A stretch of DNA of 40,932 nt from a virus, in the UHGV virus genome UHGV-2003109; one strand, 5' to 3'. Made by a program: the position numbers and the translations under genes. Within the stretch, counting starts at the first letter, position 1, and each line of letters begins with the position of its first letter. Positions 677 through 40,932 of this stretch are shown here, piece after piece. The notes under the pieces were generated by a model. The model was not told the DNA's origin, did not search any database, and saw nothing but the letters and a program-made list of their open reading frames with translations.

Positions 677-2733
677 ACGACCTCTTTTAATTGCCTGTCA
701 TTTAATTCTTTATGCCATATGCGGAAATTGCGAATATGGCCAAACAGATGTCGTTCTCCAGTATTCGTCTGCCCTCCAAATCGGATATTTTTATCAGCGG
801 TCACGCCATTATATTCACAATAAACTTCATTAACCGCTTTACCATTTGTCACCACATGAAAGTGACCATCAGCTTTTGCAATACATCCAAATGTGGTTTT
901 CTCTGCAAATACATCTGTCGCTGCGCTATTAACATACGAGCCTGAAGGGTTTGACAGACTCATATATAACTTACCACTACCTCTGTTGATTGCTGCAATT
1001 GCTGATTGCCCGGTATTGGCTGCTGCTATATCCCACACGCGGGGTGCGGCGTTTGGTGCAATATCCCAGTTTTTATGAATCTCAAGTAAAAAAGTAAATG
1101 GTAACTTATAAAGATTATTTCTGGTGGGGATACTAACCAAATCACTGGCTCTTGTCGTTGCGCTGCCTCCTGAAATAATAAATGATGATACACACGGCCC
1201 ATTCTCTACTTGTGGGGTGGCAAGATAAATATAGTCACCAGATACTGTTGCCCCACCCTGCTCAGGAGAATACTGTATCTGAGAGCCTATTTTTAACTCA
1301 CCATCAATTGCCTGAATCGTTGCCTCTGCAAAAATCCAGCCTGTGGTCTTATCCTTCCTGACTCGTGCCGTAATTCTGCCGGCAGCACCACCTGTCATAT
1401 TAATTTCAAGCGTTTGCGTATCAATGTACGCATCGCCAAGAAAAGTTGTTGCACTACCATCATACTTATCAAACCGTATACGTAACCTTACCTGTCGTTC
1501 TGTTTTAAAACGGCATGAGGTTGTCACGTACTTGTTATCGCCTGAGACATCAACTGACTTTGTTGCAGCAATTGATGCCATATTAATAGCCGAAGTTTGC
1601 CCAACCAGAGAATCGTTGCAGACAAACTTTCCATAAGTAAAACCAAAACTATCCGTCCCGGTTTCGGGCACATCCATGTTTGATGACTTCCCCCAGCTGG
1701 CTGGACTTTCCGAATTGAGCATGTAGTTCGTTCTTTGTCCCTCAATAAGCAGGCCATCACACTCAAATCGCGGCTCATTAATTTCCGCCGTTTTCAGTTC
1801 GCCAGATTTGTTGATATATGTTGCCGTTGATGCGCGACTGAAATTAACCTGTTTATCACTGGCGACCTGAACCACATCGTCACCAATAGCTATTTTTTTA
1901 TAGCCCGGAGAAAAACCCGCAATCATATCCAGTGAATCGTTAAACGGTATCCACACATCAGGCAGCGGCGGCACTATATTCGCATAGGGCTCTGCAGTCA
2001 CTTCCGCTGCGACTTCTGCGCGGTCTGCCGCCTTTTCAGCCCGTGTCGCTGCCGACAGAGCCTCATCCTTTTTCTGCCCGGCCTTTGTTGCGTCTGCTGC
2101 GGCCTCCCGCGCTTTTGTGGTGGCGACTCCGGCATTTTCAGCGGCTGACTCTGCATTACGGCGGGAAGCCTCTTCACTGTCTGCGGAGGCTTCTTCTGAC
2201 GCACGGGCATTTGTCTCTGAACGTTCTGCCGCTGTTGCTGCGTTTTGTGCGGCTGTTTTTGAAGAAGCTGCCGCTTTCGCGCTGTTACCTGCATTCGTCT
2301 CTGATGTTTTCGCCGCATTCCTGGACGATGCCGCTGCTGTTTCTGATTTCTTTGCTGCCGCTGCGCTCTGAGAGGCGGCTTCAGCGTTGCGTGCCACCTC
2401 TTCCACCATCTTTTCAAAACGATACAGTGCCTCCGGACGAACATCATCTTCTGTTGCAGCGCCCAGAAAATCATTCAATGTCCCCGGCTTAGAATCCTCA
2501 TACACGGTGATAGCCCCGGCATGTGAAGGCGGAAAACCTTCAACCAGCAGGATAACGCTGTACTGGCCATACTCGACATCCATGCTGTAACGTCCGGCTT
2601 CATCCGGATTTTCTGAGGCCACCGTGTTCACCACAACCGTGGTGCTGTTACGTTTTGCTTTGAGCTGAATGGTGCAGTTCTGTATCGGTTTTCCTGCACC
2701 GTCTTTCAGCACGCCTGAAATCTGTACTGCCAT
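673..2733 (-). CDS. stf: Side tail fiber protein with lambda Stf-like N-terminus, Ala/Ser-rich repetitive shaft and a lectin-like C-terminus
   Basis: N-terminus MAVQISGVLKDGAGKPIQNCTIQLKAKRNSTTVVVNTV... matches lambda Stf; track start 2739 is GTG, probable ATG at 2733. Confidence 0.85.
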   Translation of the reverse strand: MAVQISGVLKDGAGKPIQNCTIQLKAKRNSTTVVVNTVASENPDEAGRYSMDVEYGQYSVILLVEGFPPSHAGAITVYEDSKPGTLNDFLGAATEDDVRPEALYRFEKMVEEVARNAEAASQSAAAAKKSETAAASSRNAAKTSETNAGNSAKAAASSKTAAQNAATAAERSETNARASEEASADSEEASRRNAESAAENAGVATTKAREAAADATKAGQKKDEALSAATRAEKAADRAEVAAEVTAEPYANIVPPLPDVWIPFNDSLDMIAGFSPGYKKIAIGDDVVQVASDKQVNFSRASTATYINKSGELKTAEINEPRFECDGLLIEGQRTNYMLNSESPASWGKSSNMDVPETGTDSFGFTYGKFVCNDSLVGQTSAINMASIAATKSVDVSGDNKYVTTSCRFKTERQVRLRIRFDKYDGSATTFLGDAYIDTQTLEINMTGGAAGRITARVRKDKTTGWIFAEATIQAIDGELKIGSQIQYSPEQGGATVSGDYIYLATPQVENGPCVSSFIISGGSATTRASDLVSIPTRNNLYKLPFTFLLEIHKNWDIAPNAAPRVWDIAAANTGQSAIAAINRGSGKLYMSLSNPSGSYVNSAATDVFAEKTTFGCIAKADGHFHVVTNGKAVNEVYCEYNGVTADKNIRFGGQTNTGERHLFGHIRNFRIWHKELNDRQLKEVV

Positions 2734-23449: not shown

Positions 23450-23656
23450 CTTCATTTTCACTTTTTTAAATCCAACGACAGACGGCTGGCATTTAAGTAT
23501 TGTGAAATATTATCAAATGTAATCATCATTGATTTACAAAAGATACATTTTGCCCCGAAAGGATTCATGTCAGAAACATCAAAAGATGATGTTCTATACT
23601 GGGAACCATGACAACACGGGCATCTAAAGTGAATATGGTTTGTAATATTGTCTACC

Positions 23657-23869
23657 TCAAAGCGCCACTACATGAACAGCGGCAGGACCTTTAGGTCCGT
23701 TCTCAATACCAAATTCAACTTCCTGATTCTCAGTTAATGTTTTGAAATCGTTGCTCTGAATTGCTGAGAAATGGACAAACACATCTTTGCTGCCATCTTT
23801 CGGCGTGATGAAACCAAAACCTTTTTCAGGGTTAAACCATTTCACTAAACCAGTCATTTTGTTAGACAT
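23657..23869 (-). CDS. cspI: Cold shock protein, CspI-like
   Basis: [45 protein letters not shown]... with CSD RNP motifs; ~370 nt upstream leader. Confidence 0.9.
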
Positions 23870-24238
23870 AATTATTACCTTTTGAAGAAATTAGCCCTTG
23901 GGCAGAATGGTCCGAAAAAAAATATCAGAGAGAAAAACCAACAAGGAAATCTCAAGAGGTACAAATAATAAAATTATAACAATGACTGCTTCAGATAAAT
24001 TTGTAACAAACCAGAACACCATTAACGCATGATTAACCACCCATAGCAAGGATTACTTTTGTAAAGAAAAACACAGCAATGAAAGAATAGCTTTATTTAT
24101 TAATAAAACGTGTCATTCTGATTAATGACCTTTTATCTTACCCTTAAGATTTCAGGAATTTTGACTCATGGAAGAGTCCTTTTTATTTAAATTTTACATT
24201 CAGCGATGTAAATGTTCCGATTTAATATTACCCTACAT

Positions 24239-26258: not shown

Positions 26259-26541
26259 TTGAGATTGTGGTGCTTTTTGTGGGAGTCATCCACTTACGCA
26301 CTTTGTTTTGCCATGCCAGCAGTTAGCTTCTGCTGTAAAACTATTCATGCAGCAAACCTGCACTTCACCACAATGGTTAGCATACTTTTCCTGATTAAGA
26401 TTTTGCCAAATATGCTGGCCATTGTTTCATGTATTGGACCTCCTTACTTTTTATTAAAGAGATCCAATATTCACTACTCTGTCCGTATCTCTACTCAGGC
26501 ATCAGCCTTCTTCGTTATCGTATACAGACGAGCGATGAATT

Positions 26542-26757
26542 TTAATCAGTAATGATGACATTTGCTGCTGCAGGACCTTTAGCACCACTCTCTATAGAGA
26601 AGGTAACCTTTTGACCTTCAAATAAGGTTCGATAATTATCATTCTGAATCGCAGAAAAATGCACAAACACATCTTTACTACCATCAACAGGAGAAATAAA
26701 GCCGAAACCTTTATCAGCGTTAAACCATTTTACTAAACCAGTCATTTTATTTGACAT
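26542..26757 (-). CDS. cspB: Cold shock protein, CspB-like
   Basis: [67 protein letters not shown]. Confidence 0.9.
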
Positions 26758-27057
26758 TCTACATTCCTTAACTTGAGCCTTTCGGCATAAATGGTTTGCA
26801 TAACAGAAACGACTTCGTACTTAATTGGAGAGACTCAAAGAAGGAATAAGTGAATAACACCTGAAATGAGAACTGCTTTAGTAAACTACTTCGTATATCG
26901 TCTGTTCTTCAAACCGACGCAATCATTAACGCATAGTTGAACATATGAAGCAATGTTTATTTTAGACATCCAGCCATCTTCAACCCCATCAAAAAACTAT
27001 AGCTTTCTTCAGGAACGTGTGTATAGTGCGCCAAGTTATCAGTATTAAGGAATTTTT

Positions 27058-29853: not shown

Positions 29854-30105
29854 TTATTCTCCTGAAAAAGCAGAAAAGCCAGCTTTTATTCCGATCTCTT
29901 TCAATGCCTGTAATGAAGTGACAAACTCACCTTCGCGCAAGATAAATCCGTCCGTGACCCGAGCATCCACAAAATTAATTAACGCAGCCCCATTCTTTCG
30001 CAAACACAGAATGCGGTAATGACTAACAATGTTTCCATTTTCAACGCACACAGCATAGAGGCCATCTTCACAAAAAATTTTACGCAGTTCTTCGATGTTC
30101 ATCAT
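29854..30105 (-). CDS. Hypothetical 83-aa protein, no recognisable family
   Basis: Tandem ATG start preceded by GGAAGGA RBS. Confidence 0.5.
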   Translation of the reverse strand: MMNIEELRKIFCEDGLYAVCVENGNIVSHYRILCLRKNGAALINFVDARVTDGFILREGEFVTSLQALKEIGIKAGFSAFSGE

Positions 30106-30321: not shown

Positions 30322-30477
30322 TTACTCCTCAGGTTCGTAAGCTGTGAAGACAGCGACCTCCGTCTGCCCGGTTCGGATTCGTACCTCGCAGAGGTCTTTC
30401 CTCGTTACCAGTGCCGTCACTATGACGGTTAAACAGATGACGATCAGGGCGATTAACATCGCCTTTTGCTGCTTCAT
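30322..30477 (-). CDS. hokD: Hok-family type I toxin (HokD/RelF-identical peptide)
   Basis: MKQQKAMLIALIVICLTVIVTALVTRKDLCEVRIRTGQTEVAVFTAYEPEE; AAGGAGA RBS; track ORF is an in-frame N-terminal extension. Confidence 0.9.
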   Translation of the reverse strand: MKQQKAMLIALIVICLTVIVTALVTRKDLCEVRIRTGQTEVAVFTAYEPEE

Positions 30478-30659
30478 AGCCTGCTTCTCCTTGCCTTTCG
30501 GCACGTAAGAGGCTAACCTACATGTGTCTAGCATGAAATTGGCCTCAGATTAATGTTAAGCGTCTTGCAGGACGCGTAATGTTAACTGGGGCTTTTCTCT
30601 ATCTGCCGTTGGTGTTCATGCCCGAGGCAGATAGCCTCAAGCACCCGCAGCAATTTTAC

Positions 30660-30767
30660 TTAACTCCCTCTACCTCGCCAATCAGAAAATCGCTCCATGA
30701 AAGCAACAACAAGACAATAAATTACCAGCACAGCCACAATAGCCAACACACACGTCAGAGCCAACAC
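30660..30767 (-). CDS. Candidate 35-aa hydrophobic small membrane peptide (GTG start), not in ORF track
   Basis: Minus strand AGGAGG-TTATC-GTG TTG GCT...; translation VLALTCVLAIVAVLVIYCLVVAFMERFSDWRGRGS; inverted repeat immediately downstream. Confidence 0.3.
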   Translation of the reverse strand: MLALTCVLAIVAVLVIYCLVVAFMERFSDWRGRGS

Positions 30768-30937
30768 GATAACCTCCTGTATTGGACGTATACCAATACT
30801 GATAAATATGAGACTGCCTCTTCAATGATTCAATACAACTATTGGGTGTTCATCTAAAGAATGAAATGAAGGTAAAGTGTATATTTCAGCTCAGCGAAGT
30901 TAGAACCGTATACTCTCGATACTAACTTCGCATTGTG

Positions 30938-31969
30938 CTACCAATTGATGAAGTCAGTGATGTTATCCAACCTGGTTACAGTAACTTCCCGTCCTAACAA
31001 ATATTGCCAGTATGCCTCACGGTCATTTTGTTCACCTGCACCGCTCCACTCAATTACTCTTAAATGCTTAGAGGTTAGGTAAGGTCGAATAAGCAGGTTA
31101 AGGTGTTCATCGAGGCCAGAATAACCAAACAGTATTATTTCTTCTGATTCAAATAATGCAAACTGCAAATAATCCCAGTACGTAGAAAGAACATTAGATG
31201 CTGCTATAACTGACGGTTTCCTTTTTATATGCGTTAACACTATATGTTCGCTAGGCTCATCCCTGTCAACCGTAAGTTGAGAACGTGAAAGTTTTAAGAC
31301 GGTCTCACCCTGATTAACAAATAGTGGTGAGCCATGCAAATGCAAATAATAACCAAACCTACGATTATATTTCCGTTCGAGCGCTTCGGCGGAAAATCCG
31401 TGGCCTAACATCCCATCAACCAGATACCCATCATACCCGCTGAATATATCATTATCTATGAATGAGTTGTATAATAATTTGTCATAGTTTAATGTCGCAA
31501 TATGAGTGCGTGTATTTTTTACAAATTCCACTAGCGCATTTTCGAATCTTTGCGGCAACCCTTCACCGTAATTATGCAAACTAGTTGCAACTTTGTGGAT
31601 ATAAGTGGCGGTGATTTCGGGGAAGTTTAGTCCATCGTCAGTAAGCCAATGCTCGTTTCCTTCTCCAATTTGCGCAAGAGCCTTACAATATGTGATAGCT
31701 TGGTGAAGGGTATCCAACTCATGTTCCCCTGCCGGTGGACCTTGCCGCTGAAGACAGCGTTCGATAAGTTGCTTATGGACATCGTTTAAGAAATTGGATC
31801 GATGCCAAATTTCTGCCAACGCCCTGTCTAAGGAAAAATGAGCAGGATCTAAAGCCATACCAAGACCGTTGCCGAATATTATTAATTTTCGTGCCATATA
31901 GGAGGACTCATGTTGGAATAATCTTGAGTAGCGTAACGCGATACGCCGCAGTTTGGAAGTAATATACAT
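30938..31969 (-). CDS. SIR2-like (SIR2_2 / DHS-like NAD-binding) stand-alone protein; candidate defence NADase
   Basis: Motifs LIIFGNGLGMALD (Gly-rich N-terminus), ATLNYDKLL (conserved Asn) and YLHLHGS (conserved His), then ILFGYSGLDEH; AT-rich gene; start at 31969 or 31897. Confidence 0.65.
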   Translation of the reverse strand: MYITSKLRRIALRYSRLFQHESSYMARKLIIFGNGLGMALDPAHFSLDRALAEIWHRSNFLNDVHKQLIERCLQRQGPPAGEHELDTLHQAITYCKALAQIGEGNEHWLTDDGLNFPEITATYIHKVATSLHNYGEGLPQRFENALVEFVKNTRTHIATLNYDKLLYNSFIDNDIFSGYDGYLVDGMLGHGFSAEALERKYNRRFGYYLHLHGSPLFVNQGETVLKLSRSQLTVDRDEPSEHIVLTHIKRKPSVIAASNVLSTYWDYLQFALFESEEIILFGYSGLDEHLNLLIRPYLTSKHLRVIEWSGAGEQNDREAYWQYLLGREVTVTRLDNITDFINW

Positions 31970-32313
31970 TCCGTTTGATTACACTCGATATTACAGACTT
32001 GCATGCAAAGAAATCCAAGCTGTTAGGTAAATAGAGACCGCAGAGGAAAGTGATATAGTCTATAAAAACCAACGAATAGCGGCATGTCTTCTGCGACCTC
32101 CATTTACCCAAATAGCACTTATCTAGTAAAATTCAATGATGTATTGCATAGTATTTCGTATGAATTGATATAGATAAGAATCAGTCTTAATTCATTAGCA
32201 AATATTGAAACTCAAAATGTCTGTTTTTGATACAAAGCTGACAACCAGACCAGTTCTAGCCATGTGCCACCAAAATGTCAATTCATATCTGAAGTAATGC
32301 TCTTTAATTTCGT

Positions 32314-32736
32314 TCACCGTGGTAATGTTCGAATATTTCCCTTATAAAATGCCAAAATCCGCTGCATAACTTCGCTCTTCCGGCACTCGCGACAGATTAT
32401 GTTCATACGCCTGTCGTAGCGACGTATTTCTCCGTCAGGTAATGACCAGATAAGGTCCGGATCAACCACAGCAGGTTTCTTCACCTTTGCCCTCGAGAGT
32501 TTTTTGCGGGCGTTTTGCCAGTCCTTACGCGCCTGTTCAGAGGGGAATAACCCGTAGCCGGAGTTGTATACATCGCCACTGGCAACCAGCTCTCTGGCAA
32601 GAACGCTCATCAGATATCTTGTCGCACCTGTTTTAGCTTCCAGTTGCCGTAGCGTCTCACGACCGCTCTGGCGCACGAGTTCCACCACCTGCCCTTTAAT
32701 TTTTTCCCGCTCTTCTTGTGTAAAAACTTTTGCCAC
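32314..32736 (-). CDS. Hypothetical basic protein downstream of the replication gene (possible DNA-binding protein)
   Basis: Non-ATG start with AAGGGGG RBS; Lys/Arg-rich with CRECRK motif; occupies the lambda P position but unlike P. Confidence 0.5.
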   Translation of the reverse strand: MAKVFTQEEREKIKGQVVELVRQSGRETLRQLEAKTGATRYLMSVLARELVASGDVYNSGYGLFPSEQARKDWQNARKKLSRAKVKKPAVVDPDLIWSLPDGEIRRYDRRMNIICRECRKSEVMQRILAFYKGNIRTLPR

Positions 32737-32776
32737 AAGTCCCCCTTAAAATTACCTCATGACCTGAAATCAACAC

Positions 32777-33796
32777 TTATCCCCTGAAACCAGGCGGAAT
32801 TTCTGTATCCGGTTCAGAAATATGATTCACACAACGCTGTACAGACGAACGCCCCAGACGGATGACCAGTTCATCCCATTTTTCACGAAGCTTTGACGGG
32901 CTCATGATGTTTTTTACCCAGAATGGATCTCGCTGTACCCGACCAAACATTTCGCAAATTTGTCTGTGGCTTCTGCCATCCAGCATCCGCATTGTGCGCA
33001 CGTCATTGGCCCAGGCAGTCCAGTTAGGCTCTTTTGGTCGCATGATCTCGCCATCATCACTGGCTGCCTGTTCGTAGAGACCCACGATCCGCCCCCAGAT
33101 CCACTGCGCACACGCCAAATCCTCCCTGCTACCCCACTGGCGTTTTTTCGCACTAAACACAACCGCGTCGGAGTTCCGGGTTAAAAAATCCTGTTCAGTC
33201 GTCTGCGGGTCCGGTTGCGAAGCTTCCGGACGAAAAGTGTTTTTATTCTCTGTAGTAATCTCTGTTGTATTCTCTGTAAGATCATCAGGCCATTTTGACC
33301 CGATGACATTGGGTCGTTTTGAACCAATGGAGCGTTTCATTTTGACCTCTTCCATCGTGTCATTTTGACCTGATGGAGCGGCGCATTTTGAACCGATGGA
33401 TTCGCTCAATTTGCCACCATCTAAAAGCTCGCTCCCATAGTTGATCGTGTAGAAATTGGTCATATCGCGCTTTGATTTATTGAGCTTTTCACAACGCAAA
33501 AGCCCCAGCGTTTTCAGACTTGCAAACGCGCGCTTTAACGTTGACTCTGACCAGAATGGGAACTGTTCCAGCCATTGTTCCGTTGTGTTGTAAATCCAGC
33601 GAACACCATCACATTCCATGCCGGAATTGGTATCTCTCAACCAGTAATGCAACTGCTGCAACACAATGGCTTCATTTAAGCCAATCTTCATCGCAAGCTG
33701 TGTGTTTATAACCAGTGGGCGTTCAGCAAAAAGAAGGCTCATAATTCCATCCAGCTTTTTGTTGGTATTGCTGTCGATACGCAAGTTTGAAAGCAA
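32777..33796 (-). CDS. Replication initiation / replisome organiser protein (lambda O-like role)
   Basis: N-terminal region (…RPLVINTQLAMKIGLNEAIVLQQLHYWL…) typical of phage replisome organisers; iterons embedded in the coding sequence. Confidence 0.8.
   Translation of the reverse strand: MLSNLRIDSNTNKKLDGIMSLLFAERPLVINTQLAMKIGLNEAIVLQQLHYWLRDTNSGMECDGVRWIYNTTEQWLEQFPFWSESTLKRAFASLKTLGLLRCEKLNKSKRDMTNFYTINYGSELLDGGKLSESIGSKCAAPSGQNDTMEEVKMKRSIGSKRPNVIGSKWPDDLTENTTEITTENKNTFRPEASQPDPQTTEQDFLTRNSDAVVFSAKKRQWGSREDLACAQWIWGRIVGLYEQAASDDGEIMRPKEPNWTAWANDVRTMRMLDGRSHRQICEMFGRVQRDPFWVKNIMSPSKLREKWDELVIRLGRSSVQRCVNHISEPDTEIPPGFRG
33291..33420. repeat. Origin iterons: five to six ~22-bp direct repeats (core CATTTTGACC / CATTTTGAACC) inside the O-like gene
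   Basis: Direct reading: cattttgacccgatg, cgttttgaaccaatgg, cattttgacctc, cattttgacctgatgg, cattttgaaccgatgg, caatttgccacc. Confidence 0.7.
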
Positions 33797-34244
33797 TTGC
33801 TTTTTCTATAAGTTCGTCAGTTTCACGATCCACTACGGCAGGATCAGCAAAAAGCAGTCCGGACTCCACCACATCGCCATATTCTTTGTTTAACCCGGCG
33901 ATCATGTACGTGATGCTTTTTCCGTCACTAATTTCACGATACAACCTGAAATCATTAATCCGGATAGCCTCCATAATTGCAGGCACTAGCGCCGTGAACT
34001 TTTCACGCTTATCCCTGGTGTCGATAGCCTTCCAGCGTTCGAATATCTTCACTCGATTAACGCCAAGCGCTCGCTGATCAACCGCGCCACCTTCATCTGT
34101 GACACGCTGAACATCGATGTTCGGGCGCTCTTTCAAAGCCCAGAATGCTTCAGTGATTAATATCGTCGCCTGCTCCTGTGTCATTCCTGGTCGACATATC
34201 CAGGCATCCAGAGCCTCACGAGCCTGTTCAGGAGTGATTTTCAT
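33723..34244 (-). CDS. YdaT-like protein (cII position)
   Basis: 173 aa; motifs ...KIFERWKAIDTRDKREKFTALVPAIMEAI... recalled as YdaT-family; lies between the cro-like gene and the replication gene. Confidence 0.55.
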   Translation of the reverse strand: MKITPEQAREALDAWICRPGMTQEQATILITEAFWALKERPNIDVQRVTDEGGAVDQRALGVNRVKIFERWKAIDTRDKREKFTALVPAIMEAIRINDFRLYREISDGKSITYMIAGLNKEYGDVVESGLLFADPAVVDRETDELIEKAIAFKLAYRQQYQQKAGWNYEPSFC

Positions 34245-34455
34245 TGTTCAACCGCCCCGCCCGCTTCGTCTTACGATATTCGTCATAAACCTTGGGATCA
34301 TACTGAAGCTCGCCGCCAGATGCCTCCTGTAGACGCATCGCGCGACCTTCAGGAACCAGCTCTTGCCATTGAGAAACAGCAGATGGGTCAACGCCAGCAG
34401 CTTTCGCTACTTTGGCTTTCGTACCGTAAAAATTAATTACGTCTGATTTAAACAT
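34228..34455 (-). CDS. dicC: Cro-like regulator DicC (YdaS family)
   Basis: MFKSDVINFYGTKAKVAKAAGV...VPEGRAMRLQEASGGELQYDPKVYDEY; divergent from dicA. Confidence 0.8.
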   Translation of the reverse strand: MFKSDVINFYGTKAKVAKAAGVDPSAVSQWQELVPEGRAMRLQEASGGELQYDPKVYDEYRKTKRAGRLNNENHS

Positions 34456-34468
34456 CGCACCTCCAATA

Positions 34469-34482
34469 TTGAGTTTTCTCAA
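34469..34482. promoter_or_regulatory. Palindromic operator TTGAGTTTTCTCAA in the dicA-dicC divergent promoter region
   Basis: Perfect 14-bp palindrome in the 77-bp intergenic region between the dicC and dicA starts. Confidence 0.5.
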
Positions 34483-34532
34483 TGCTAATCACTCAAGGAA
34501 TCTCAAGTCAAGGGTTATTAAGATATCTAAAT

Positions 34533-34940
34533 ATGAACGAGAAAACTTTAGGTCAACGCATTAGAGAAAGACGTAAGCAGGTAGGCTTAAGTCAAAACGG
34601 TTTAAGCAAAGCTGCTGGCGTATCTGGCTCATCAATTTCATTATGGGAAAGTGACCATACAGCCCCGCGCGGGCAAAATTTGCATCGCCTCGCCGAGGTA
34701 TTGCAATGTTCACCAACCTGGATACTGTTTGGCGACGAGGACAAAACACCAGCTCCCCCTGTTTCACTCGATAGTGCCTTAGACTTATCGGAAGATGAGT
34801 TAGAGATGCTGCGTTTGTATCGCGCACTTCCTAAATCAGAGCAACAAGCACAACTCAGCGAACTCCGCGCCCGCGTTGAGAATTTTAATCGCCTGTTCAC
34901 CGAGCTATTAGAGGCTCGCAAACGCAACAAGCATCAATAA
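34533..34940 (+). CDS. dicA: XRE-family HTH repressor DicA (CI-like immunity repressor)
   Basis: …LGQRIRERRKQVGLSQNGLSKAAGVSGSSISLWESDHTAPRGQNLHRLAEVLQCSPTWILFGDEDK… closely resembles E. coli DicA. Confidence 0.9.
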   Translation: MNEKTLGQRIRERRKQVGLSQNGLSKAAGVSGSSISLWESDHTAPRGQNLHRLAEVLQCSPTWILFGDEDKTPAPPVSLDSALDLSEDELEMLRLYRALPKSEQQAQLSELRARVENFNRLFTELLEARKRNKHQ

Positions 34941-35004
34941 TCATCCCTTCACAAAATTTTAAAGCCTTACATTTCAATGTATTGGCTTTATCTTGCGCCA
35001 ATAC

Positions 35005-35060
35005 TTGAGTTTTCTCATCAAAAAACCTTGACGAAAAATAATGAGAAAACTAAATTATCT
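35005..35060 (+). promoter_or_regulatory. Candidate promoter of the ydfA-dicF-dicB operon flanked by operator half-sites
   Basis: TTGAGTTTTCTCA (35005-35018), -35 TTGACG (35028-35033), TGAGAAAACTAA (35042-35053) overlapping a TAAATT -10. Confidence 0.45.
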
Positions 35061-35132
35061 CCATCAAGACACCGCACGGTGTTCTCAGCAAACAGTTCCG
35101 CTACCCCAGCGTTAAGGGGAAATAAGGTCAGC

Positions 35133-35288
35133 ATGGATACTATCGATCTTGGCAACAACGAATCTCTGGTGTACGGCGTGTTTCCAAACCAGGACGGCAC
35201 GTTCACCGCAATGACGTATACCAAAAGCAAAACGTTTAAAACCGAAAATGGTGCCCGTCGCTGGCTGGAAAGAAACTCAGGTGAGTGA
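35133..35288 (+). CDS. ydfA: YdfA-like small protein (DUF1391)
   Basis: MDTIDLGNNESLVYGVFPNQDGTFTAMTYTKSKTFKTENGARRWLERNSGE. Confidence 0.8.
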   Translation: MDTIDLGNNESLVYGVFPNQDGTFTAMTYTKSKTFKTENGARRWLERNSGE

Positions 35289-35289
35289 T

Positions 35290-35865
35290 ATGGATTTCGA
35301 CACAATCATGGAAAAGGCTTACGAAGAATACTTCGAAGGCCTTGCCGAAGGCGAAGAAGCTCTCAGCTTCAGTGAGTTTAAACAGGCACTCAGAATAAGA
35401 ATGTGCTCTCACAATGACGCGGAGCACAAATATGAGAAGCAAAATCAGACCGCAGAAAATTTTGTTCTGGAACCCGGAGAAACGCTTTTCAAAATTCCCG
35501 TTACGTGCCCCATTTGCGGTTTTACATCAGAAGAACTTGACGACTCCTGTAACAATCAGGAAACAACCAAGTATGTCGAAGATGATACCGAGTGCGCACG
35601 AAGAACGATTATATCCACGAGTCCAAACTCCAGGACCAATAAATCTCACTTTGAGAGGGTGATTAATCCACTCCCCCAAACCAATAAAAAAGATGCCGGA
35701 GGACAAAAAACCCAATGGAACAACGGGATATCTGTCAAAAAAAGACGTTCCATTAAAGACAAACAACGCAGCGCCAACAACTGTAAGCGCTTTATACCAG
35801 TAATCAATTTTCATGTTCTTAAGCGGATTTATTGGTGGTTGCGACATTGCTTAATGAATCCTTAA
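35290..35865 (+). CDS. YdfB-like N-terminus fused to a longer hypothetical protein
   Basis: MDFDTIMEKAYEEYFEGLAEGEEALSFSEFKQALRIRMCSHN... continues to 192 aa; AGGTGAG RBS. Confidence 0.5.
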   Translation: MDFDTIMEKAYEEYFEGLAEGEEALSFSEFKQALRIRMCSHNDAEHKYEKQNQTAENFVLEPGETLFKIPVTCPICGFTSEELDDSCNNQETTKYVEDDTECARRTIISTSPNSRTNKSHFERVINPLPQTNKKDAGGQKTQWNNGISVKKRRSIKDKQRSANNCKRFIPVINFHVLKRIYWWLRHCLMNP

Positions 35866-36124
35866 AACTGTGGTGATTTTAAGGATACCACCTCGCCTGA
35901 CGTGGTTAAAAGCAGGCACACAACACGAAAGCGCACGGCGAAGTTCGTCTCACTGTACGGTGTCGTTAAATTTAATTCGACCGTGCGCTTCCGGTTGTGG
36001 CAACCCGCGAAATGGCGCGGCGGTAAGTATGGCGGGGTTATTCCTTCCCCGTTGAGGACACCGGGTTGTCAGGTTGACCATACGCTTAAGTGACAACCCC
36101 GCTGCAACGCCCTCTGTTATCAAT

Positions 36125-36180
36125 TTTCTGGTGACGTTTGGCGGTATCAGTTTTACTCCGTGACTGCTCTGCCGCCGTTT
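36125..36180 (+). ncRNA. dicF: DicF small regulatory RNA
   Basis: tttctggtgacgtttggcggtatcagttttactccgtgactgctctgccgcc followed by a T-run; matches E. coli DicF; between ydfB-like and dicB. Confidence 0.8.
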
Positions 36181-36351
36181 TTAAAGTGAATTTTGTGATG
36201 CGGTGAATGCGGCTGAGCGCACGCGGAACAGTTAAAACCAAAAACAGTGTTATGGGTGGATTCTCTGTATCCGACGTTAATTGTTAACTGGTTAACGTCA
36301 CCTGGAGGCACCAGGCACTGCATCACAAAATTCATTGTTGAGGACGCGATA

Positions 36352-36540
36352 ATGAAAACGTTATTACCAAACGTTAATACGTCTGAAGGTTGTTTTGAAA
36401 TTGGTGTCACTATCAGTAACCCAGTATTTACTGAAGATGCCATTAACAAGAGAAAACAAGAACGGGAGCTATTAAATAAAGTATGCATTCTTTCAATGCT
36501 GGCCCGTTTACGTCCGATACAAAAAGGATGCTGGCAATGA
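36352..36540 (+). CDS. dicB: Cell division inhibitor DicB
   Basis: MKTLLPNVNTSEGCFEIGVTISNPVFTEDAINKRKQERELLNKVCILSMLARLRPIQKGCWQ. Confidence 0.9.
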   Translation: MKTLLPNVNTSEGCFEIGVTISNPVFTEDAINKRKQERELLNKVCILSMLARLRPIQKGCWQ

Positions 36541-36728
36541 ATACAGCATTTGCACTTGTTCTGACAGTTTTTCTTGTTTCCGGAGAACCAGTTGATATTG
36601 CAGTCAGTGTTCACAGGACAATGCAGGAGTGTGTGACTGCAGCAACCGAACAGAAAATTCCCGGTAACTGTTACCCTGTCGATAAAGTTATTCACCAGGA
36701 TAATAACGAAATCCCGGCAGGTCTTTAA
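36537..36728 (+). CDS. ydfD: YdfD small lysis-associated membrane protein
   Basis: MNTAFALVLTVFLVSGEPVDIAVSVHRTMQECVTAATEQKIPGNCYPVDKVIHQDNNEIPAGL; ATGA overlap with dicB. Confidence 0.85.
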   Translation: MNTAFALVLTVFLVSGEPVDIAVSVHRTMQECVTAATEQKIPGNCYPVDKVIHQDNNEIPAGL

Positions 36729-36821
36729 AACAGTTCCGTAATAAACATCCGATTTCATTCTTATATGCCAGCAATGGCAGGGATTTGTTCACCCTTAAAT
36801 CTGTCATGAGGTTAAAACAAA

Positions 36822-39293
36822 ATGAGTAAAGTCTTTATTTGCGCCGCCATTCCGGACGAACAGGCAATAAAGGAAGAAGGTGCAATCGCTGTAGCCACTG
36901 CCATTGAAGCCGGTGATGAACGTCGCGCCCGCGCAAAATTTCACTGGCAATTCCTGGAACATTATCCGGTTGCTCAGGACTGCGCTTATAAATTTCTTGT
37001 TTGCGAGGATAAACCCGGTATACCCCGCCCTGCCCTCGATTCCTGGGATGCTGAATATATGCAGGAAAACCGCTGGGATGAGGAGTCTGCTTCCTTTGTC
37101 CCGGTTGAGACTGAATCAGATCCGATGAACGTCACTTTTGACAAGCTGGCCCCTGAAGTACAGAACGCTGTCATGGTTAAGTTCGACACATGTGAAAACA
37201 TCACCGTTGATATGGTGATTAGCGCGCAGGAATTGTTGCAGGAAGACATGGCAACATTCGACGGACATATCGTTGAAGCGTTGATGAAAATGCCAGAAGT
37301 TAACGCCATGTATCCGGAGCTTAAGCTGCATGCCATCGGGTGGGTTAAACATAAATGTAATCCTGGAGCTAAATGGCCCGAAATTCAGGCAGAGATGCGC
37401 ATCTGGAAAAAACGTCGCGAAAATGAACGCAAGGAAACCGGAAAATACACGTCTGTTGTTGATCTCGCCCGCGCCAGAGCCAATCAACAGCACACTGAAA
37501 ATTCAACAGGAAAAATCAACCCGGTCATTGCTGCCACTCATCGCGAATACAAGCAGACATGGAAAACACTGGATGACGAACTGGCCTACGCTCTCTGGCC
37601 TGGTGATGTGGATGCCGGAAACATTGACGGCAGCATCCATCGCTGGGCAAAAAATGAAGTTATCGACAACGACCGCGAAGACTGGAAGCGTATCTCGGCA
37701 TCAATGCGCAAACAGCCTGATGCCCTTCGCTACGACCGCCAGACTATTTTTGGCCTTGTCCGTGAACGTCCGATCGACATTCACAAAGACCCTGTGGCAC
37801 TGAACAAATACATTACTAAATACCTGACTACAAAGGGCGTGTTTGAAGATGAAGGAACAAATCAGAGCGCAACTGATACTCTCTCGTCGCCAGTACCAGA
37901 AACTGATGCAGTGGAAACGGCAATTCCGGGCAACGAAAAAACTGAATGCAAAGTGGAAGTCGAACCATCTGTAGAGCGTGAGGGGCCGTTCTACTTCCTC
38001 TTTACCGACAAGGATGGCGAAAAATACGGTCGCGCAAACAAACTTTCTGGTCTGGATAAGGCGCTGGCTGCCGGGGCTACTGAAATCACGAAAGAAGAAT
38101 ATTTCGCCCGCAAAAACGGTACATACTCAGGTTCACAACAAAATACTGGTGCATCTGACACGACCGCACAACCAGAGCCGGTAAAAATTACCGCTGACGA
38201 AGTAAACAAAATTATGCAGGCAGCCAATATCAGCCAGCCTGACGCCAATCAGTTGCTTGCTGTATCACGTGGTGAATTTGTTGCAGGGATTAGCGATCCG
38301 AATGATCCGAAATGGGTGAAGGGGATTGAAACCCGCGATTCAGTGAACCAGAACCAGCAAGAAACGGAACAGAACGACCAGAAAGCGGAACAAAACAGCC
38401 CAAATGCGTTACAAAACGAGCCAGAAACGAAACAACCTGAGCCAGTAGCGCAACAGGAAGCGGAAAAAATCTGCACCGCCTGCGGTCAGACCGGCGGCGG
38501 CAACTGCCCTGAATGTGGTGCGGTGATGGGCGACGCAACATACCAGGAAACATTCGATGACAAGAACCAGGTTGAAGTTCAGGAAGACGATTCGGAGAAA
38601 ATGGAAGGCGCTGAACATCCACACAAGGAGAATGCTGGCAGCGCTCAGGACCACGCCAGCGATAGTGAAACTGGCGAGACGGCAGATCCCTTAATTACGG
38701 TGAACAGTCATCACGTTATCACATCCACCAGCAGGACGTGTGACCATCTAATGATCGACCTTGAAACCATGGGAAAAAATCCTGATGCCCCGATTATCTC
38801 AATAGGCGCAATATTTTTCGATCCACAAACCGGAGATATGGGACCGGAATTTAGCAAGACCATAGATCTGAATACTGCTGGCGGAGTCATTGATCGTGAC
38901 GTCATTAAATGGTGGCTGAAGCAATCACGTGAAGCGCAGTCTGCCATTATGACCGATGAAATCCCGTTAGATGATGCACTGTTACAATTGCGGGAATTTA
39001 TCGACGAAAACTCCGGTGAATTTTTTGTTCAGGTCTGGGGAAATGGAGCCAACTTCGACAACACGATTTTGCGCCGTTCATACGAACGGCAGGGGATCCC
39101 CTGCCCGTGGCGTTACTACAACGATCGCGATGTACGCACAATCGTTGAGCTGGGGAAAGCCATAGACTTCGATGCCAGAACGGCTATTCCATTCGAAGGT
39201 GAGCGGCATAATGCACTTGATGACGCCCGTTACCAGGCAAAATACGTTTCAGTTATCTGGCAAAAACTGATCCCGAGTCAGGCTGATTCTTAA
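36822..39293 (+). CDS. Large recombination-associated exonuclease (YdfE-like) with internal zinc ribbon and C-terminal DEDDh 3'-5' exonuclease domain
   Basis: C-terminal motifs DLETMG, NGANFD, HNALDDARY; CTACGQ...CPECG zinc ribbon; lambda exo/RecE position; uninterrupted 823-aa ORF. Confidence 0.8.
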   Translation: MSKVFICAAIPDEQAIKEEGAIAVATAIEAGDERRARAKFHWQFLEHYPVAQDCAYKFLVCEDKPGIPRPALDSWDAEYMQENRWDEESASFVPVETESDPMNVTFDKLAPEVQNAVMVKFDTCENITVDMVISAQELLQEDMATFDGHIVEALMKMPEVNAMYPELKLHAIGWVKHKCNPGAKWPEIQAEMRIWKKRRENERKETGKYTSVVDLARARANQQHTENSTGKINPVIAATHREYKQTWKTLDDELAYALWPGDVDAGNIDGSIHRWAKNEVIDNDREDWKRISASMRKQPDALRYDRQTIFGLVRERPIDIHKDPVALNKYITKYLTTKGVFEDEGTNQSATDTLSSPVPETDAVETAIPGNEKTECKVEVEPSVEREGPFYFLFTDKDGEKYGRANKLSGLDKALAAGATEITKEEYFARKNGTYSGSQQNTGASDTTAQPEPVKITADEVNKIMQAANISQPDANQLLAVSRGEFVAGISDPNDPKWVKGIETRDSVNQNQQETEQNDQKAEQNSPNALQNEPETKQPEPVAQQEAEKICTACGQTGGGNCPECGAVMGDATYQETFDDKNQVEVQEDDSEKMEGAEHPHKENAGSAQDHASDSETGETADPLITVNSHHVITSTSRTCDHLMIDLETMGKNPDAPIISIGAIFFDPQTGDMGPEFSKTIDLNTAGGVIDRDVIKWWLKQSREAQSAIMTDEIPLDDALLQLREFIDENSGEFFVQVWGNGANFDNTILRRSYERQGIPCPWRYYNDRDVRTIVELGKAIDFDARTAIPFEGERHNALDDARYQAKYVSVIWQKLIPSQADS

Positions 39294-39365
39294 TGTTCAA
39301 CTGTCGCCGGTTGTGACTGGTATTCTGCAACCGGCGCTCGTCTGATGTAAGAGATAAAGAAATCG

Positions 39366-39617
39366 ATGAGCGAAGTAATCATGATTGTCTCTCCCGGCAA
39401 ATGGGTATCCGAAGAGCAGTTAATTGCGCTGAAAGGAATAAAAAAAGGTACGTTAAAAAAGGCCCGGGAAAAATCGTTTATGGAAGGAAGGGAATATAAG
39501 CATGTCGCTCATGACGGTATGCCATGGGATAACAGTCCATGCTTTTACAACCTGGAAGAAATTGATCGCTGGATTGAGCGCCAGGCATCAGCGAGACCAA
39601 GACGTCATCTTACTTGA
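39366..39617 (+). CDS. xis: Excisionase-like protein
   Basis: 83-aa ORF immediately upstream of the integrase; ...EGREYKHVAHDGMPWDN... resembles lambdoid prophage excisionase-like proteins. Confidence 0.65.
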   Translation: MSEVIMIVSPGKWVSEEQLIALKGIKKGTLKKAREKSFMEGREYKHVAHDGMPWDNSPCFYNLEEIDRWIERQASARPRRHLT

Positions 39618-39651
39618 CTAAAAGCCACACTAACTAATGAGAGAGGTTGAA

Positions 39652-40932
39652 ATGAAATATCCGACAGGCGTGGAAAACCATGGAGGGAAATTACGTATCT
39701 GGTTTGTTTATAAAGGCGTAAGAGTCAGGGAAAATCTGGGGGTTCCTGACACAGCAAAAAACAGGCGCGTTGCAGGTGAACTACGCGCCTCTGTTTGTTA
39801 CGCAATAAAAACTGGTGTTTTCGACTATGCAAAACAGTTTCCCTCCTCACGCAATCTGGAAAAATTTGGTGAGGCCCGACAAGATTTAACCATAAAAGAA
39901 CTGGCTGAAAAATTTCTGGCACTGAAAGAAACTGAAGTCGCCAAAACATCACTCAACACATACCGTGCCGTCATCAAAAATATCCTGAGCATAATCGGTG
40001 AAAAAAATCTTGCCTCATCGATTAATAAAGAAAAATTACTGGAGGTTCGTAAAGAGTTACTGACTGGATACCAGATCCCCAAAAGTAACTATATTGTTAC
40101 ACAACCAGGGAGATCGGCTGTAACTGTAAATAATTACATGACAAATCTTAACGCCGTGTTCCAGTTTGGTGTTGATAACGGTTACCTAGCAGATAATCCG
40201 TTTAAGGGGATCTCGCCATTAAAGGAATCAAGAACCATTCCGGATCCTCTTTCGCGGGAAGAATTTATCCGTCTTATCGATGCGTGCAGAAATCAGCAAG
40301 CAAAAAATTTATGGTGTGTTTCTGTTTATACTGGCGTTCGCCCTGGTGAGCTGTGTGCACTTGGATGGGAGGACATAGATCTGAAAAATGGAACAATGAT
40401 GATCAGGAGAAATTTAGCAAAAGACCGTTTCACGGTACCAAAAACACAGGCGGGAACCAATCGGGTCATTCATCTTATTAAGCCAGCAATCGACGCTCTC
40501 CGGAGTCAGATGACATTAACGAGACTGAGCAAAGAGCATATCATTGATGTTCACCTCAGAGAGTATGGCAGAACAGAAAAACAAAAATGCACCTTTGTTT
40601 TTCAACCTGAAGTGTCAGCGAGAGTAAAAAATTATGGTGACCATTTTACCGTTGACTCAATAAGGCAGATGTGGGACGCAGCGATAAAACGTGCCGGACT
40701 CCGCCATCGAAAATCATATCAGTCGAGACATACTTATGCCTGCTGGTCGCTGACAGCTGGTGCTAACCCGGCATTTATAGCAAACCAGATGGGCCATGCA
40801 GATGCGCAAATGGTATTTCAGGTATACGGAAAATGGATGTCTGAAAACAATAATGCACAGGTAGCTTTGTTAAATACACAGTTAAGCGAGTTTGCCCCAA
40901 CCATGCCCCATAACGAAGCAATGAAAAATTAA
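39652..40932 (+). CDS. int: Tyrosine site-specific integrase
   Basis: C-terminal catalytic region with R...HxxR...Y signature (RHRKSYQSRHTYA...); GAGAGG RBS; stop at the window end. Confidence 0.9.
   Translation: MKYPTGVENHGGKLRIWFVYKGVRVRENLGVPDTAKNRRVAGELRASVCYAIKTGVFDYAKQFPSSRNLEKFGEARQDLTIKELAEKFLALKETEVAKTSLNTYRAVIKNILSIIGEKNLASSINKEKLLEVRKELLTGYQIPKSNYIVTQPGRSAVTVNNYMTNLNAVFQFGVDNGYLADNPFKGISPLKESRTIPDPLSREEFIRLIDACRNQQAKNLWCVSVYTGVRPGELCALGWEDIDLKNGTMMIRRNLAKDRFTVPKTQAGTNRVIHLIKPAIDALRSQMTLTRLSKEHIIDVHLREYGRTEKQKCTFVFQPEVSARVKNYGDHFTVDSIRQMWDAAIKRAGLRHRKSYQSRHTYACWSLTAGANPAFIANQMGHADAQMVFQVYGKWMSENNNAQVALLNTQLSEFAPTMPHNEAMKN

Follow-up and report, generated by a model that had tools for sequence, protein, structure and literature searches.

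A full-length dicBF–exonuclease operon in an apparently complete lambdoid prophage related to Qin

We analysed the early-left region of the viral genome UHGV-2003109, a single stretch of 40,932 nt (hereafter the window) that ends at its 3′ side with the stop codon of an integrase gene, the attachment sites falling outside. The region under study, 34940–39293, extends from the stop codon of a DicA-type repressor gene to that of an 823-residue open reading frame (ORF). It is very probably the PL-type, early-left operon of a lambdoid prophage that resembles mEp460 and HannyBb, appears complete, is related to the Qin prophage of Escherichia coli K-12 and carries dicBF-ydfE in an undamaged state. 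The genes that define the operon, with the excision and integration genes beyond it, are as follows.

35133..35288 (+), ydfA (DUF1391), first gene of the operon; Pfam DUF1391, E = 1.7e-28; 51/51 residues identical to K-12 YdfA
36125..36177 (+), dicF small RNA; Rfam RF00039, terminator hairpin and U tract
36352..36540 (+), dicB, 62 residues; Pfam DicB and NCBIfam CellDivInhibDicB
36537..36728 (+), ydfD (DUF1482), 63 residues; Pfam DUF1482, E = 3.7e-25; 60/63 residues identical to K-12 YdfD
36822..39293 (+), full-length YdfE-type exonuclease, 823 residues; single ORF, Pfam Rv2179c-like
39366..39617 (+), xis, excisionase, full length; Pfam DUF1233 'putative excisionase', E = 1.6e-31; absent from K-12
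39652..40932 (+), int, tyrosine integrase, full length; Pfam Arm-DNA-bind_2 and Phage_integrase, 426 residues in the PGAP annotation

The operon, its K-12 counterpart and the surrounding element

An earlier note on this DNA had described an intact early-left operon and stated that the exonuclease gene of K-12 is broken by an insertion sequence (IS). The features the note had named are present at the positions listed above, and the exonuclease frame is uninterrupted. BLAST alignment of the whole window with the Qin region of MG1655, a check proposed in the note, gave common blocks that are 95–99.7% identical in DNA. The K-12 ydfE pseudogene corresponds to the window exonuclease as far as residue 256, with a few substitutions, and then reads into IS2E, in agreement with the note. 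Because alignment resumes only at window position 39773, inside int, 2,184 bp (37589–39772) are missing from K-12, comprising exonuclease residues 257–823, xis and the 5′ end of int; the K-12 intQ gene is without its 5′ end, and an IS2 remnant of ∼700 bp occupies the deleted stretch. The K-12 lesion is an insertion plus a deletion, the latter additional to what the note had described. The description of the operon as intact holds for the exonuclease, dicF, dicB and ydfD, but the operon is not simply an intact version of that in K-12, since positions 35391–35907 have no K-12 counterpart.

The dicF sequence, previously described as essentially identical to the known small RNA, agrees with the 53-nt K-12 RNA at 52 of 53 positions. 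The sole change, C to G at the last base, falls outside the predicted terminator stem, and the minimum-free-energy structure equals that of the K-12 RNA. The Rfam model RF00039 was matched over its entire length (model positions 1–52; window 36126–36177, plus strand) with 72.5 bits and E = 3.1e-14 against a gathering score of 48 bits, placing the RNA within the DicF family. Upstream of dicF the DNA is homologous to K-12 from position 35908, and the DicF processing region reported for K-12 is therefore retained. A scan for terminators returned no more sites than expected by chance and missed that of dicF because its loop is long. DicB and YdfD were found where the note had placed them, both by profile and by identity to K-12. 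DicB scored 128.4 bits with Pfam PF05358 (cut-off 27; E = 7.8e-38) and 131.6 bits with NCBIfam NF049927 (CellDivInhibDicB; cut-off 100) across its full 62 residues, which makes it a member of the latter family, and 57 of those residues are identical to K-12 DicB, all five differences lying within the last 19. Division inhibition by DicB is MinC-dependent in K-12. The start of ydfD overlaps the stop codon of dicB by 4 nt.

The element around the operon has the gene content of a lambdoid phage. Over 34400–40932 the window is 99.9% identical to the N1420 prophage, which sits between rspB and a truncated ydfJ, the chromosomal site of Qin, and whose PGAP annotation is complete for packaging, head, tail and lysis genes as well as for Q, replication and immunity; together with int, xis and the coverage by phage records, this accounts for the lambdoid gene set. 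The phage record mEp460_4F5 (LR595868) covers 95% of the window's structural half at 98.7% identity, in agreement with the complete structural module claimed earlier, and the isolated phage mEp460 covers 80% of it at 97.8% identity. For the early half the corresponding phage is HannyBb (PP925841; host E. coli, source bird faeces), with a coverage of 89% and an identity of 95.8%, and the early-left gene set is common to HannyBb, mEp460_ev081 (LR597641), PhiR42_1 and Tritos (OV696610). On the strength of this coverage we read the window as a mEp460-like lambdoid prophage of which Qin is a decayed relative.

At its other end the window departs from the N1420 prophage: in the tail-fibre region (1–2700), 60-mers taken from window positions 1, 701 and 2001 are absent there, a difference that is typical mosaicism. 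The window begins inside the tail-fibre assembly region and therefore does not include pinQ, ydfK or the left attachment site. A tRNA scan found no tRNA genes in the window.

The 823-residue exonuclease

The exonuclease had been described as intact, with a zinc ribbon and a C-terminal DEDDh domain, and the single ORF encodes both. From the N terminus, the YdfE_N and YdfE_C regions come first; disordered acidic linkers follow, then a zinc ribbon resembling that of RecE, and the DEDDh domain closes the protein. Pfam matches for the exact protein give a three-part architecture of PF27430 and PF27432 (YdfE_N and YdfE_C, newer models whose matches were precomputed) and PF16473, and PHROG 2082 is matched over residues 1–822 of 823. 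The zinc ribbon (CxxC-N7-CxxC) comprises residues 551–565 (nt 38472–38516), all four cysteines being kept in seven of the seven homologues that cover it. The DEDDh domain comprises residues 642–813 (nt 38745–39260) and matched PF16473 (Rv2179c-like) with 221.9 bits (cut-off 27; E = 6e-66) over profile positions 2–177 of 177. Residues D646, E648, D746, H796 and D801 are all present, each being the majority residue in its column (39–45 homologues). Judged by its profile match and its Exo I, II and III residues, the C-terminal domain is of the Rv2179c-like DEDDh type.

Structure prediction was consistent with this assignment. In the AF2 model residues 1–205, 240–345, 388–435 and 641–820 form confident domains separated by disordered acidic linkers, with pLDDT mostly >90 for residues 641–820. 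The top solved structure in Foldseek was T4 DexA (8KEL; E = 1.3e-9), ahead of RNase T and oligoribonuclease, and DexA, RNase T, Orn and REXO2 were all matched at probability 1.00, as expected of a DnaQ-like fold. Searching with the whole protein gave DEDDh matches only among the 50 matches listed, and a search with the N-terminal model found no informative structural neighbour. By sequence (phmmer) the nearest solved protein was again T4 DexA 8KEL (E = 8.7e-6; ∼20% identity). The top 150 relatives of the DEDDh domain, from a search over 1.8 billion representative proteins, are mostly stand-alone proteins of ∼180–250 residues; the long relatives are mosaics that have only part of the scaffold in common. 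A stand-alone 205-residue Rv2179c-like exonuclease (1258–1875, minus strand) also lies in the early-left operon of another lambdoid prophage, L010, so the DEDDh module recurs at this operon position with and without the YdfE/RecE scaffold.

Tritos, PhiR42_1 and other records name the protein 'exodeoxyribonuclease VIII', which would make it an orthologue of RecE performing RecET-type 5′–3′ resection for phage recombination. Residues 262–626 do align with RecE 278–592 (E = 3e-58), zinc ribbon included, the two proteins being near-identical around the ribbon and the acidic linker, and the NCBIfam RecE equivalog NF007259 was matched with E = 4.6e-81. That match, however, reached 273.2 bits where the equivalog cut-off is 1269, and it spans only model positions 261–603 of 877, and BLASTP gave no significant alignment to RecE past RecE residue 592. 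The C-terminal catalytic domain is DEDDh, nearest in structure to T4 DexA, and not the RecE nuclease; no annealing-protein gene was found between ydfD and xis, the next gene downstream being xis and not recT. Because the score falls short of the cut-off, the RecE nuclease domain is absent and there is no recT, we rejected orthology with exonuclease VIII, to which we attach next to no probability. On its domain content the protein is instead a chimera of a RecE scaffold and a DEDDh nuclease, and annotations of it as 'exodeoxyribonuclease VIII' are wrong on domain grounds.

We predict a metal-dependent 3′–5′ exonuclease in which a DexA-like domain would stand in place of the 5′–3′ nuclease on a RecE-type N-terminal and linker scaffold. 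Its most likely role would be to process DNA ends while the phage replicates or recombines, perhaps alongside host RecBCD. According to a 2025 survey, lambdoid recombination modules can include DnaQ-like 3′–5′ nucleases, and phages without a recombination module are reported to be rich in Chi sites (PMC12315714). A motif search located eight Chi sites (GCTGGTGG) in the window, compared with 1.24 expected from shuffles, six of the eight being on the structural-gene strand.

20081, 20549, 24835, 29402, 29459 and 38725 (−), Chi sites
28817 and 28869 (+), Chi sites

By the criteria of PMC12315714 this count is intermediate, and the window is reminiscent of the lambdoid class described in 2025 as having no Rec module and many Chi sites. 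Between ydfD and xis there was likewise no sign of an anti-RecBCD gene.

The enzyme might alternatively serve mainly in inter-phage conflict or against host defence, acting on T-even modified DNA in the manner of EcD/HREX or on nucleic-acid signals, a reading that we consider improbable. It draws on T4 DexA as the closest solved structure, on the lack of an annealing-protein partner and on the E. coli DexA homologue EcD, which is reported to protect against T4 (PMC12153337) and whose cloning primer encodes MIDTET, resembling M644-IDLET here; the neighbouring dicB is also reported to be phage-protective (PMC6832061). Enzymes of the EcD type are described as DexA homologues that lack the tetramer-forming Asp (D90) and keep W152 and D169, which recognise 5-hydroxymethylcytosine (PMC12153337). 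In the window protein, however, the position of DexA D90 is Asp (Ala in EcD) and that of W152 is Tyr, although the phmmer alignment to DexA is weak (∼20% identity), too unreliable to settle membership of this type, and does not extend to D169. Moreover, the exonuclease gene belongs to an early operon under repression and would stay silent in an uninduced lysogen; no PADLOC model was matched; and EcD is not among the six short homologues inspected, none of which matched its primer-derived ends (N-terminal MIDTET and C-terminal TIPETYD). We favour end processing as the likelier role.

The antisense gene, the immunity region and induction

Upstream of dicF the operon contains a segment that differs from K-12, and ahead of it lies the immunity region. 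The features of both are listed here.

34228..34455 (−), Cro-like regulator in the DicC position, divergent from the repressor gene; Pfam P22_Cro, E = 8.5e-17
34469..34482 (no strand), operator-like palindrome TTGAGTTTTCTCAA, exact copy in the cro/repressor intergenic region
34533..34940 (+), DicA-type repressor, 135 residues; NCBIfam 'transcriptional repressor DicA', 239 bits (cut-off 101)
35028–35056 (+), predicted early-left promoter TTGACG-17-TAAATT; consensus scan, with putative operator copies at 35005..35054
35290..35391 (+), 5′ remnant of ydfB; PGAP pseudogene 'missing C-terminus'; BLAST homology to K-12 ends at 35390
35527..35847 (−), 106-residue gene with three hydrophobic segments, convergent with the operon; homologues, substitution pattern and an AAGGA ribosome-binding site

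A cassette of 517 bp (35391–35907) replaces the 3′ end of K-12 ydfB and all of ydfC. Of the 806 genomes that carry it, 787 have it at an identity of 99% or more, and it shows one difference in 671 nt from HannyBb, against 94.6% identity between the window and HannyBb over the whole region 34940–39293. Sixty homologues of equal length were found for the 106-residue protein encoded on its minus strand, the most distant at 34% identity; among them are proteins from Yersinia, Herminiimonas, Reinekea and metagenomes. When the window was compared with strain PS2Canimalfeces12, seven of the 11 substitutions in the overlap proved to be synonymous third-position changes in the minus frame (binomial P = 0.039 for at least 7 of 11 at one codon position), whereas nine of the 11 were non-synonymous in the plus frame. 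Homologues in other lambdoid prophages (L010–L014, the first of which carries the stand-alone exonuclease described above) adjoin the repressor gene and are convergent with the early-left genes. By these signatures the minus-strand ORF is a real gene, albeit one that is mostly unannotated. The plus-strand ORF that overlaps it (35248–35865) continues the ydfB frame and matches PHROG 35040, and is probably spurious in its 3′ part. Annotations conflict accordingly: the PGAP annotation of N1420 omits the 106-residue gene, as do many RefSeq genomes, while the HannyBb record, like other phage records, calls the probably spurious ORF.

The 106-residue protein matched no Pfam, PHROG, NCBIfam or PADLOC family and showed no similarity to Rac SieB. 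The position of its gene resembles that of sieB in Rac, and our guess would be an exclusion protein expressed in the lysogen. Taken jointly with the exonuclease, a bolder and rather improbable idea presents itself, namely that a RecE scaffold bearing a nuclease of opposite polarity and lacking an annealing protein might be a conflict nuclease deployed on induction against the modified DNA of competing phages or defence-related nucleic acids, while the 106-residue protein could be an exclusion factor; were this so, the left arm of Qin-type phages, with DicB, would be a gene cluster for inter-phage warfare. Separately, a weak promoter-like match (9/12) lies on the minus strand at 36260–36287, downstream of dicF. 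Transcription from it, were it active, would run antisense over dicF toward the 106-residue gene; such matches are no commoner in the region than expected by chance, and the site is a lead only.

Turning to the immunity region, the Cro-like gene is named 'Cro/CI family' by PGAP in N1420, its DNA being 98% identical to the ydfX/dicC region of K-12. The repressor is identical to K-12 DicA at 76 of 135 residues (56%), the divergence lying in the helix-turn-helix (HTH) half, and the immunity allele thus differs from that of K-12. A palindrome, TTGAG-TTTT-CTCAA, occurs in three copies, exact at 34469–34482, with one mismatch at 35005–35018 and with two at 35041–35054, and in repeat and motif searches these were the three best matches of the whole window, all within the immunity region. 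The copies at 35005 and 35041 flank the predicted promoter, the latter overlapping its −10 hexamer. The repressor of this DicA allele probably uses the three palindromes as its operators. By analogy with K-12 dicBp, the sites upstream of ydfA would act as promoter and operators, and the operator arrangement published for dicBp fits the layout of the window (PMC10448788).

If the K-12 work carries over, the repressor would keep the operon off in the lysogen, and derepression through the antirepressor Rem or by stochastic switching, rather than by RecA-dependent cleavage, would yield one polycistronic RNA. RNase III and RNase E would then excise DicF, which would repress ftsZ and other mRNAs; DicB would block division and can limit some phage infections; and YdfD would promote lysis. 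A rem gene is present in the window (∼29854–30105, minus strand). In K-12, dicBF is reported not to be SOS-induced and to be derepressed via Rem or stochastically (PMC5069750, PMC10448788). Within Pfam the window repressor matched HTH families only (HTH_3), with no match to Peptidase_S24, the self-cleavage domain, and a search of the whole window for CTGT-N8-ACAG found no canonical LexA box, so SOS control was discarded as a candidate. For these reasons mitomycin C, which the earlier note had proposed as the inducer, may be the wrong one and a doubtful test of functionality, and a negative result with it would therefore not refute functionality. For work on DicF and DicB induction in wild strains, manipulation of the antirepressor or the repressor is preferable to SOS inducers.

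The earlier note had further suggested that the element is an inducible, functional relative of Qin. Kinship with Qin is well founded, and function is plausible given the coverage by phage records, the full-length int and xis and the operator palindromes, whereas inducibility is conjectural. An alternative is that the element is cryptic though complete-looking, with the dicBF-exonuclease operon being cargo domesticated by the host and with neither excision nor plaques to be expected. Balasubramanian et al. viewed dicBF in 2016 as conserved in defective prophages (PMC5069750), and a cryptic element would also fit the missing SOS link, the reduction of ydfB to a remnant and the putative status of the attachment sites. 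It sits poorly, however, with the close match of most of the structural half to mEp460_4F5 and of most of the early half to HannyBb, with the presence in HannyBb of the same ydfB cassette, with the full length of int and xis and with the publication of a functional dicBF phage (PMC10448788), and we judge it unlikely.

Several points nevertheless weigh against our interpretation of the region as the operon of an apparently complete, Qin-related prophage. Comparison of both ends of the N1420 prophage revealed no exact repeat exceeding 10 nt. Between ydfB and dicF the operon departs from that of K-12, and the convergent 106-residue gene there could hinder read-through to dicF. With a repressor that shares only 56% identity with K-12 DicA, control by Rem is extrapolated, and a recombination role for the exonuclease is uncertain because it has no annealing partner and 3′–5′ exonucleases usually inhibit recombination (PMC12315714).

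Prevalence and relation to known systems

We determined how common the arrangement is in 5,426 complete E. coli genomes, requiring coverage of at least 80% of each segment.

Window 34400–40932 (repressor region through int, 6.5 kb): 1,550 of 5,426 genomes
Exonuclease gene: 3,532 of 5,426 genomes, at a median of 2 places per genome and up to 9
dicF-dicB-ydfD: 3,779 of 5,426 genomes

The full-length form is the norm, found in ∼65–70% of complete E. coli genomes and often in several copies, and K-12 is the exception. The exact 823-residue protein is listed in 391 blocks of a public-assembly index. Furthermore, the functional phage mEp460_evo81 carries dicB, dicF, dicAC and rem (Ragunathan et al. 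2023, PMC10448788), and this overtakes a statement of 2016 according to which DicB and DicF were absent from all phage genomes (PMC5069750). The novelty implied by the earlier note does not survive these observations. The arrangement is already known, and what is mildly new is the antisense gene and the nature of the exonuclease as a RecE-scaffold/DEDDh chimera. The use of the window is as a documented full-length reference for the dicBF-ydfE region of K-12, with the exact breakpoints of the K-12 lesion.

Other parts of the window were noted in passing. Positions 30492–33964 have no K-12 counterpart and hold SIR2-family, DUF977 and O-like replication genes. The SIR2-family protein (30938–31969, minus strand; named so by PGAP in N1420) matched the PADLOC SIR2 defence models weakly (best E = 6.5e-7) and may be prophage defence cargo. 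Rfam gave two cspA-thermoregulator matches (23630–24015 and 26526–26918, both minus strand) in a region that aligned to K-12 cspI and cspB, and a sok antitoxin RNA match (30472–30646, minus strand) that overlaps the 5′ end of hokD, as in K-12 Qin.

Compared with K-12 Qin, whose operon reads ydfABC-dicF-dicB-ydfDE with dicA/dicC, the window has the same order of repressor, ydfA, ydfB, dicF, dicB, ydfD, ydfE-type gene and int. The two are not collinear throughout: K-12 has the 3′ end of ydfB and ydfC in place of the cassette with its antisense gene, it has relBE-ydfV-flxA in place of the SIR2-family gene and its neighbours, and nearly all structural genes are missing from it. The closest phage likeness is to HannyBb, which spans 100% of 34940–39293 with the same genes, ydfB cassette, xis and int, while the Tritos record annotates DicF, DicB, YdfD and the exonuclease in identical order. 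Tritos differs in having another CI/Cro pair and a K-12-type ydfB/ydfC rather than the antisense-gene cassette; more generally, HannyBb, mEp460_ev081, mEp460_4F5 and Tritos differ from the window in tail fibres, immunity alleles and accessory genes, in keeping with their mosaic nature.

A further parallel is provided by the early-left operon of Rac (ydaG-ydaF-[sieB]-kilS-kilR-ydaE-racC-recE-recT-...-xisR-intR), which likewise opens with a DUF1391 gene, continues with a gene for a membrane protein in the opposite orientation, then with a small RNA and a division inhibitor, and ends in a large nuclease gene and xis/int; its RecE has its middle region and zinc ribbon in common with the window exonuclease. 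KilR and KilS, however, are not homologues of DicB and DicF by any test run here, and RecE has another C-terminal nuclease and a RecT partner where the window protein has a DEDDh domain and no partner. T4 DexA and most members of its family, finally, are stand-alone enzymes, whereas here the domain forms the C-terminal part of an 823-residue multi-domain protein.

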